Notes: generated by a model not told the origin, from the letters alone. A DNA stretch of 64,000 nt from Candidatus Omnitrophota bacterium (GCA_029261055.1 JAJDCA010000044.1:77867-141866), one strand, 5' to 3'. Counted from the stretch's first letter, positions 16,145 through 17,723 are shown. Program-made: numbers and translations.

Positions 16145-17014
16145 ATGCCCTCGATTAAAGAGCACGACACAAAAATTAAAAGTCTTAAAAATACGCAAAA
16201 AATTACAAAGACTATGAAGATGGTAGCTGCGAGTAAACTACGCAGAGCGCATGAAGCCCAGACCAATGCCAAATTGTATGCGAACAATCTTACCGCACTG
16301 ATTTCCCGCATATCGGCTTCCGTCCAGGCGGATATGCATCCTTTATTGGTCGCCAGGGAGCAGGTGAAGCGTGTTTTAGTTCTCGTGGTTACCTCAGACA
16401 AAGGCCTGTGTGGGGCGTTTAATCACAATGCTAACAAACATGTCGAGGCCTGGGTCGAAAAGCAAGGTCACCGTTTTGAACAAATTGATTTGAGTTTTTG
16501 TGGTAAAAAAGGATGGACCTATTTTAAAAATCGACATAATGTGAATAAATATTATGAAGGGGTGACTGAGAATCCAAAATTTCTGGATGCCAAAACAATA
16601 GGAACTGATTTAACTCAGGCTTTTCTTAACGGGGAATATGATGAGGTGTACATTGACTACAATCAATTCTTTAGCCCGCTTTCTCAAGAAACAATTTTTG
16701 AAAAAATTTTACCGCTCGATCCTCAAAGATTGATCAAAGAAAAAGTAGAAAAACCAACCGAATACATTTTTGAACCGGAAGCTGCGAAACTTTTGGAATT
16801 CCTTATTCCACATTTTCTCTATTTTAAAATTTATTTTGCACTATTAGAAAATGCCGCTGGAGAACATGGGGCACGCATGACGGCCATGGATAATGCCACC
16901 CGTAATGCTTCAGATCTTATCAACCGAACCACATTATTACGTAACCGCGCCCGACAGGCCTCTATTACAACTGAACTGACGGAAATTGTGGCAGGAGCAG
17001 AGGCCTTAACATGA
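16145..17014 (+). CDS. atpG: F1 ATP synthase subunit gamma
   Basis: 289 aa, conserved C-terminal helix ...ITTELTEIVAGAEAL. Confidence 0.9.
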   Translation: MPSIKEHDTKIKSLKNTQKITKTMKMVAASKLRRAHEAQTNAKLYANNLTALISRISASVQADMHPLLVAREQVKRVLVLVVTSDKGLCGAFNHNANKHVEAWVEKQGHRFEQIDLSFCGKKGWTYFKNRHNVNKYYEGVTENPKFLDAKTIGTDLTQAFLNGEYDEVYIDYNQFFSPLSQETIFEKILPLDPQRLIKEKVEKPTEYIFEPEAAKLLEFLIPHFLYFKIYFALLENAAGEHGARMTAMDNATRNASDLINRTTLLRNRARQASITTELTEIVAGAEALT

Positions 17015-17328
17015 GCGAACAAGATCGCCTAATTGCCCAAGAGTTAAAAATAAAAATATCACAATTTGTAAAATTTGTAGATTTTAGAGTTTTTGGTTCC
17101 CGTGCAAAGGGAAACAATGTCCCGGAATCCGATATGGATGTATTTATGGAAGTGGAATCTCTAAACAAAGAAATAAAAAATAAAATTTATGATGCCTCTT
17201 GGGAAGTAGGTTTTGAAAACTTTATGGTTATTTCACCTCTAATTTTTACTTTCGACGAAGTGACAAATTCTCCTTTGCGAGCGTCCCCGATCTTAAAAAA
17301 TATTCTTTCAGAGGGAATTCAAATATGA
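17011..17328 (+). CDS. nucleotidyltransferase (MNT-type antitoxin)
   Basis: FGSRAKGN...ESDMDVF = GS-x(n)-DxD minimal nucleotidyltransferase motif; ATGA overlap with the atpG stop. Confidence 0.75.
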   Translation: MSEQDRLIAQELKIKISQFVKFVDFRVFGSRAKGNNVPESDMDVFMEVESLNKEIKNKIYDASWEVGFENFMVISPLIFTFDEVTNSPLRASPILKNILSEGIQI

Positions 17329-17723
17329 CAGATAAACAAACATTATTTACATACAGACTCAAACAGGCAGAAGAAACTCTTTCTGATGCAAAGGCGATGT
17401 TTGAAAACAACCTCAGTGCACGATCTATTACGAATCGTGCGTATTACACAATATTTTATGCGATATTAGCTTTGTTTTTAAAATTAGACATTAATTTAAA
17501 AACTTCAAAACATGCTGGGATTATTTCCTTATTTGACAAAGAAGTTGTACGACCTGGAAAAATTGACAAATTTTACTCAAAAATTCTTCACAAAATATTT
17601 GACGCTAGACAAGAAGGTGATTACAGAGAATTGATTGAGTTATCTTCTGATGATGCCAAAGAAGCGATTCAATCAGCTGAAAAATTTTTAACCAAAATTC
17701 AAGAGGTATGCAAAAATGAATAA
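17325..17723 (+). CDS. HEPN-domain protein (toxin partner of MNT)
   Basis: All-helical 132 aa with an HEPN-like [14 protein letters not shown] segment and a C-terminal R..GDY; ATGA overlap with the MNT stop; its stop overlaps the atpD start by 8 nt. Confidence 0.7.

Follow-up and report, generated by a model that had tools for sequence, protein, structure and literature searches.

A toxin-antitoxin-like MNT-HEPN cassette between atpG and atpD in the ATP synthase operon of a Candidatus Omnitrophota bacterium

Two additional genes in the F1 part of the atp operon

The 64,000-nt stretch of Candidatus Omnitrophota bacterium DNA analysed here (GCA_029261055.1, JAJDCA010000044.1:77867-141866; hereafter the window, in whose coordinates all positions are given) contains an F-type ATP synthase operon, atpIBEFHAGDC, that carries between atpG and atpD a gene for a minimal nucleotidyltransferase (MNT), the putative antitoxin, followed by a gene for a HEPN protein, the putative toxin. 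We examined the locus using the open reading frame (ORF) list, the raw sequence and Pfam searches on the window, with gene calls also made on an identical contig. This Logan contig (L001, run SRR15505515) matches window positions 9436-27463 with 100% identity over 18,028 bp, both junctions of the pair included, so that the arrangement is not peculiar to one assembly pipeline, an assembly artefact having been named as a refuting outcome in a preliminary description of the locus. All eight subunit genes are intact and in the canonical order, the termini being verified for atpG and atpD. On the + strand, the ORFs, together with the gene calls and Pfam families on L001, delineate an atpI-like gene (12161-12361), atpB (12354-13118), atpE (13210-13437), atpF (13440-13982), atpH (14082-14618; OSCP confirmed by Pfam) and atpA (14631-16142), after which atpG (16145-17014; PF00231, E 2.3e-93) encodes a full-length F1 gamma subunit of 289 aa. 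The MNT gene (17011-17328, +; 105 aa; PF01909) and the HEPN gene (17325-17723, +; 132 aa; PF05168) come next, and the full-length F1 beta subunit of 471 aa is encoded immediately thereafter by atpD (17716-19131, +; PF00006, PF02874 and PF22919).

The preliminary description depicted these four genes as chained by overlaps, and the ORF list and raw sequence bear this out to the base. The atpG stop codon TGA (17012-17014) overlaps the MNT start within an ATGA (17011-17014), MNT and HEPN share a second ATGA (17325-17328), and the HEPN stop overlaps the atpD start as ATGAATAA (17716-17723). The term "translationally fused" is nevertheless wrong, as the locus consists of four separate ORFs of which only stop and start codons overlap. 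The identity of the pair, its antitoxin-first order and its location inside the F1 part of the operon all hold on Pfam and ORF evidence. MNT, HEPN and atpD are each preceded by an AGAGG Shine-Dalgarno-like motif at -11 to -15, placed within the final atpG codons, 7 nt before the MNT start (16999-17003, +), within the 3' end of MNT (17310-17314, +), and, as AGAGGT, within the HEPN codons Q-E-V (17702-17707, +); most other genes of the run in which they lie display no such motif. In the raw sequence, compared with relatives, we found no alternative in-frame atpD start upstream of the conserved N terminus.

The MNT scores 29.6 bits against PF01909 (cut-off 21) and displays an intact GSX10DXD motif, G29-S30 (17095-17100) and D41-M-D43 (17131-17139), which is invariant in the family alignment and conforms to the Pol-beta-type hG[GS]-x9-13-Dh[DE]h motif of MNT-HEPN dyads. 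All 25 family-invariant columns in an alignment with 21 family members are retained. The AF2 model has a pLDDT of 90 and its nearest solved folds are MNT antitoxins, with matches to Legionella 8xeo/8xeh, Shewanella MntA 7bxo/6m6w/5yep and HI0073 1no5; besides, the sequence matches the PADLOC candidate defence family PDC-S09. The first approximately eight residues read MSEQDRLI, versus a family consensus of MKPKDYEI, a divergence that could reflect remodelling of the 5' end overlapping atpG.

The HEPN protein reaches 58.6 bits against PF05168 (gathering cut-off 22; E 8.6e-16) and matches PDB entries 9xbd, 9xbc and 2hsb (AF0298) at the sequence level with E values of ~1e-10 to 1e-9 (1.2e-9 for 2hsb, phmmer). 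Its AF2 model (pLDDT 93) finds 2hsb as the best fold, with a TM of 0.84-0.88 (Foldseek), as opposed to only ~0.5-0.6 against HepT toxin structures. In an alignment of 22 homologues, H63 (17511-17513), H89, R95 (17607-17609), D99 (17619-17621) and Y100 (17622-17624) are invariant, and the window protein retains all 34 invariant columns. The motif is R95-Q-E-G-D99-Y100 (R-x3-D-Y), which replaces Rx4-6H. In AF0298-like HEPN-T proteins the motif His has been described as absent, with Asp in its place, while a second conserved His in the N-terminal part may form an alternative active site and a conserved C-terminal Tyr is predicted as the target of nucleotidylylation (PMC3710099, Anantharaman et al.). 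The window HEPN has the hallmarks of this group, namely a PF05168 score above the cut-off, similarity to 2hsb, Asp instead of His and the N-terminal conserved His, and the pair has the layout of an MNT-HEPN dyad, in which the genes are adjacent, co-oriented and overlapping, with MNT 5' of HEPN. A literature search returned nothing on PDB 9xbd/9xbc, nor on UPF0332 together with HEPN.

Insertion at the atpG-atpD junction and spread of the cassette family

The atpG-atpD junction was compared in 80 genome loci, 80 metagenome loci and the four nearest AtpG homologues from a collection of 5.8 billion proteins; relatives were considered informative when AtpG was at least 50% identical (50-71%), and these belong to Omnitrophota and other PVC bacteria (Kiritimatiellia and Lentisphaerae). 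The best AtpG matches are Omnitrophota metagenome-assembled genomes (MAGs) at 59-71% identity. In 18 of the 18 informative relatives atpG and atpD are separated by a gene-free spacer of 3-216 bp (the median over 129-130 junctions is 69 bp), from which it follows that in one lineage the insert took the place of this spacer. The AtpG C terminus, ...IVAGAEALT*, is equal in length to the ...AGAEALK*, N* or Q* ends of relatives, as is the AtpD N terminus to its counterparts; with both lengths unchanged, the replacement was precise. The cassette insertion is thus lineage-specific, with the spacer replaced exactly and both atp genes left full length. In the relatives a strong Shine-Dalgarno sequence is always present in the spacer 5' of atpD, whereas here this role falls to the HEPN codons Q-E-V. 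We detected no target-site duplications, attC-like sites or terminal inverted repeats around the insert (~16700-18000), only short direct and inverted repeats at chance level.

Non-coding DNA is absent on both sides of the pair. Within 17011-17723 there is no + strand sigma-70-like promoter and no intrinsic-terminator-like site, the scan totals corresponding to the shuffled expectation, and no Rfam match was found in 11500-20000. With no intergenic DNA, promoter, terminator or Rfam element of these kinds at hand, the economical inference is that the pair would be transcribed by read-through from the atp promoter. Co-transcription with atpG and atpD, as proposed in the preliminary description, is accordingly best regarded as the only economical reading of a locus that has no room between its genes. 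Translational coupling, proposed alongside it, is possible through the overlaps; on the other side, MNT, HEPN and atpD are each equipped with an AGAGG motif and gene overlaps are usual in this compact genome, so that their translation may be either coupled or independent.

Homologues of the pair are numerous, at 60-73% identity for HEPN and 58-68% for MNT, and their hosts, where named, are Planctomycetes, Elusimicrobia, Nitrospirae, Aerophobetes, Firestonebacteria and Deltaproteobacteria. This scattering over phyla indicates that the cassette family spread horizontally, and it would have done so under purifying selection, with a cassette dN/dS below ~0.2 (an upper limit only, synonymous sites being saturated). 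All seven retrieved contexts present an MNT of 105-138 aa upstream of HEPN, with a 4-bp overlap and co-oriented with the neighbouring genes. In one of them (L162) purD follows the cassette directly, its start codon sharing an ATGA with the HEPN stop; in another (L166) it is found between cas6b and cas1. In L164/L165, one pair precedes a leuC-like large subunit gene and two more lie between the large and small subunit genes. The four remaining contexts place it beside ParE, PemK or VapBC modules, or in a run of housekeeping genes. When five cassettes were aligned, DNA similarity was confined to the ORFs, starting at the MNT start and ending in the HEPN tail. We also considered low GC as a sign of recent transfer and ruled it out: the cassette is low in GC in every host examined (31-40%, below the GC of its own locus in 4 of 5), and the other toxin-antitoxin genes of the window are equally AT-rich.

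A closer view of L164 (1283-4643) displays Aconitase and Aconitase_C subunit genes, of the isopropylmalate/homoaconitate-isomerase type, that are separated by two toxin-antitoxin-like pairs, one MNT/HEPN and one composed of an unassigned partner and HepT-like_2, with a third pair, again MNT/HEPN, just upstream. This arrangement closely parallels the atpG/atpD case.

The window itself is dense in toxin-antitoxin (TA) modules. Besides the MNT/HEPN pair, solid modules are Phd/PIN at 8348-9068, Phd/PIN at 30723-31360, Phd/ParE at 40499-41027, an antitoxin/ParE pair at 43940-44403 on the - strand, and an unassigned partner with PIN at 59626-60308, while a PIN gene at 54558-55046 is a weak match. 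Six solid modules and one weak one in 64 kb amount to approximately one per 9 kb, at which rate it is no statistical surprise for this genome that one of the eight atp junctions holds an insert. All of them stand in line with their neighbours, with spacers of 9-163 bp or overlapping, and these neighbours include ferrochelatase, SCO1/DUF420 and a radical-SAM gene. The presence of a TA pair in an atp operon had been called highly unusual; it is indeed rare among atp operons, but the statement is weakened by the six to seven modules in the window, by the nearest cassettes in or against purD, leuC/leuD and cas genes, and by Rickettsiales atp operons that hold TA pairs.

Tight packing is likewise general here. 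In the same-strand run at 9106-27317, adjacent genes usually overlap or stand no more than 14 bp apart, examples being the 1-bp overlap of atpD and atpC, the ATGA shared by atpC and an asmA-like gene, and the 8-bp overlap of the atpI-like gene with atpB. The run, of ~18 kb, reads ferrochelatase, a Na+/H+ exchanger fused to a PTS EIIA domain, and atpI to atpC, and continues with an AsmA-like protein, a HEAT-repeat protein, Rieske, a split cytochrome b and a 977-aa multihaem cytochrome c; it may constitute one energy-metabolism super-operon. In L003 and L004, two Omnitrophota loci, a cytochrome b region is likewise encountered ~4.3 kb beyond atpG in the downstream direction. The last subunit gene, atpC (19131-19391, +; PF02823), encodes an epsilon subunit of 86 aa that consists of the N-terminal beta-sandwich only and lacks the C-terminal helical domain (inhibitory, ATP-binding); as epsilon measures 94-129 aa in the four nearest relatives, a short form seems common in the group. 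Elsewhere in the window, a giant ORF of 3226 aa occupies 44837-54517; another two, at 1846-5049 and 55646-59590, exceed 1000 aa and have no Pfam domain. Unusually long proteins have been described as characteristic of Omnitrophota (bioRxiv 10.64898/2026.06.07.730766).

Origin and role of the pair

Additional genes within the F1 part of the operon are found in other bacteria. A Rickettsiales MAG (L030; CAZUXB010000003.1, 5494-7922) carries conflict-type genes between its F1 genes, in the order atpA, DUF4258, DUF2283, atpG, Rap1a immunity, MNT (PF01909), HepT-like (PF01934, with RNFISHEY) and atpD, and a second Rickettsiales MAG (L022; CANHDY010000029.1, 5365-5862) has the same DUF4258/DUF2283 genes between atpA and atpG. 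On an alphaproteobacterial-type contig (L127:3871-4756), a 137-aa ORF and a 23S_rRNA_IVP four-helix-bundle gene separate atpG from atpD. Three Acidobacteriota loci (L018:5013-5624, L077:6920-7582 and L100:1559-2044) have at the same place a gene for a bPH_2 (plus Zn-ribbon) membrane protein, which is apparently conserved at that position. Together, these inserts show that in several phyla the F1 half of the operon can accommodate small additional genes. MNT/HEPN pairs of two HEPN families have landed at the atpG/atpD junction twice. The Rickettsiales pair is the sole MNT/HEPN pair that home-made hidden Markov models and phmmer, an insensitive combination, detected in 1.41 Mb from 164 atp loci, and with ~129 atpG/atpD junctions out of ~1300 the recurrence has a p of ~0.1, which is not significant and was obtained with those same insensitive models. 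We regard the recurrence as a lead, not as a result. A literature search found no paper on a TA pair inside an atp operon.

It is likely, in our assessment, that the pair represents a lineage-specific mobile TA-like cassette of the AF0298-type MNT-HEPN kind, which is transcribed along with the atp genes and persists through addiction and because imprecise loss is costly. According to this scenario, a two-gene mobile cassette of ~0.7 kb would have entered the short atpG-atpD spacer in the ancestor of one lineage, probably within Omnitrophota, and would have swapped the spacer exactly, with gamma and beta staying full length. Because the cassette lacks the space for its own promoter or terminator, it would depend on read-through from the atp promoter, and ribosomes would initiate on each of its ORFs, and on atpD, at a separate AGAGG-type binding site that lies inside the gene before. 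If the pair functions as characterised MNT/HEPN modules do, HEPN would be a growth-inhibiting, RNA-targeting toxin acting via an alternative His63/Arg95 site, and MNT would counteract it both through binding and through ATP-dependent nucleotidylylation, for which the invariant Tyr100 would be the most likely target. Such a cassette would then persist because it is addictive and because its imprecise removal would damage atpD expression. Our best reading of the pair is thus that of a selfish or neutral passenger, one among many in a compact, TA-rich genome, with no support for a link to ATP synthase, and of the two explanations offered in the preliminary description it is the selfish insertion, hard to lose, that fits the evidence best.

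Several points weigh against this scenario. The promoter scan covered signals of the sigma-70 type, and the pair may have an internal promoter of another type. The window MNT has a non-synonymous divergence (dN) of ~0.3 to the copies in L162, L164 and L166, compared with ~0.1 among those three, and this two- to threefold higher value could mean relaxed or altered selection. The nearest AtpG among 5.8 billion proteins is only 71% identical, and HEPN, MNT and AtpD are all singletons in 90% clusters. The independent MNT/HEPN pair at the same junction in the Rickettsiales MAG obliges a random-passenger model to accept a coincidence. Finally, the HEPN is devoid of the canonical Rx4-6H RNase motif; the putative TA behaviour of the pair is deduced from its family, its fold and the way such cassettes behave in genomes, and growth inhibition, RNA cleavage and nucleotidylylation are predictions by analogy for this subfamily.

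The missing Rx4-6H motif also opens the way to a different explanation, in which the pair is not a TA module but a two-subunit nucleotidyltransferase of the HI0073/HI0074 or KNTase type, whose inert HEPN would bind a substrate, a small molecule or a protein, for the MNT. In agreement with this, the MNT model is as close to HI0073 (1no5) and to the N-domains of aminoglycoside adenylyltransferases as to MntA, and HEPN partners of MNTs can be non-catalytic (PMC3710099). Such an enzyme would, however, have to account for the invariant His63, His89, Arg95, Asp99 and Tyr100 of the subfamily, since residues of this sort have been assigned to an alternative RNase site and to the target of nucleotidylylation, and HEPN proteins without the canonical motif are reported to have been still toxic in a genome-scale screen (PMC3710099). 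The patchy cross-phylum spread and the clustering with VapBC, ParE and PemK are moreover typical of TA or defence genes, and the MNT matches PADLOC PDC-S09, all of which leaves the two-subunit enzyme rather unlikely. Much less credit is due to an assembly or binning artefact, that is, a chimeric join of a TA-bearing fragment into the atp operon. The source is indeed a metagenome and the arrangement is carried by one organism or sample, but no base differs between the 238-kb NCBI contig and the 18-kb Logan contig over 18,028 bp, a chimeric join would not yield seamless in-frame stop/start overlaps between full-length flanking genes, and low GC characterises the cassette family in each of its hosts; we consider this explanation practically negligible.

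The position next to the genes of an ATP-producing enzyme suggests yet another scenario, a domesticated energy-state switch, in which an ATP-dependent MNT within the atp operon would tie TA dosage to ATP synthase expression and low ATP would set HEPN free to arrest growth. Type VII MntA neutralises HepT with ATP, and it has been proposed that low ATP leaves HEPN unmodified (PMC7641770, PMC11586414); the unrelated MNT/HepT pair at the same junction in a Rickettsiales MAG, the only one in the 164 atp loci, could be taken in the same sense. Since the insert is lacking in all 18 informative relatives, the association with the operon is not conserved, and the coupling of growth arrest to ATP synthase expression put forward in the preliminary description finds no support for that reason. 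In addition, members of the same cassette family are equally tightly packed in pur, leu and cas operons and in TA clusters, the recurrence is weak (p ~0.1, low-sensitivity models), and the TA density of the genome makes an insert among eight atp junctions unsurprising. Taken together, this makes the switch improbable. We give about as little weight, if anything slightly less, to a broader version in which the atpG/atpD junction would be a repeatedly selected home for ATP-consuming MNT/HEPN pairs (PF05168 in Omnitrophota, DUF86 HepT in Rickettsiales) acting as an energy-sensing switch for growth arrest or abortive infection. If it were true, antitoxin activity would depend on the ATP made through the surrounding operon.

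The locus, then, presents a known kind of cassette, an MNT-HEPN dyad, in a rare position. As a mobile passenger, it would offer a clean natural case of a TA-type cassette sitting between subunit genes of an essential, stoichiometry-sensitive complex with neither gene damaged, and it would suggest that, in candidate phyla with compact, TA-dense genomes, selfish elements can enter even the most conserved operons. It would also indicate that TA-type cassettes can do without their own promoter, which bears on how promoter-less cassettes persist. For annotation the case is a caution, since function prediction based on operons would wrongly link MNT and HEPN to ATP synthase. If the recurrence at the junction proved non-random, a link between ATP-dependent antitoxins and energy metabolism would follow, which is not what the present evidence shows.

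Comparison with known MNT and HEPN systems

The inserts of the two Rickettsiales MAGs resemble the window pair in being small two-gene modules, co-oriented and nested between F1 genes with overlapping or near-zero spacers, and L030 shares with it an MNT and HEPN pair at the identical atpG/atpD junction. They differ in that the L030 HEPN is a DUF86 HepT with RNFISHEY, accompanied by Rap1a and DUF4258/DUF2283 genes, and that it belongs to another phylum and stems from an independent insertion. The HI0073/HI0074 system of Haemophilus influenzae likewise combines a small MNT with a separate, HEPN-like partner of four or five helices encoded by the adjacent gene. The window MNT model aligns to HI0073 (1no5) with a TM of ~0.6, no sequence-level match leads from the window pair to HI0074, and the functional interpretation of HI0073/HI0074 is itself unsettled.

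With type VII HepT/MntA, the pair shares the MNT-then-HEPN gene order, the GSX10DXD motif, an MNT fold nearest to solved MntA and other MNT antitoxins, and a helical-bundle HEPN with an invariant Tyr near a conserved Arg, a plausible AMPylation acceptor. In the type VII mechanism, a Tyr next to the active site is AMPylated with ATP as substrate (PMC7641770, PMC11586414), and two prerequisites of this reaction, the intact GSX10DXD motif and the invariant Tyr100, are seen here. In contrast, the window HEPN belongs to PF05168 and not to DUF86/HepT (the Pfam search gave no PF01934 match), it has R-x3-D-Y in place of the type VII RX4HXY motif, and its model superimposes on HepT with a TM of ~0.5-0.6. 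Canonical type VII HepT/MntA membership is ruled out by the R-x3-D-Y motif, by the missing PF01934 match and by the MntA NCBIfam equivalog NF047752, against which the MNT scores 20.7 bits, below the cut-off of 60.

The closest likeness is to the AF0298/UPF0332 HEPN proteins (PF05168; 2hsb, 9xbd) that are paired with an MNT. They agree with the window pair in Pfam family, sequence, fold, the Asp-for-His exchange, the N-terminal His and the C-terminal Tyr, and in these systems, too, MNT lies directly upstream of HEPN with a 4-bp overlap. By this comparison the pair is an AF0298/UPF0332-type MNT-HEPN dyad that probably works like HepT/MntA, and it differs from the other members only by its position between atpG and atpD, with outer overlaps on both sides.

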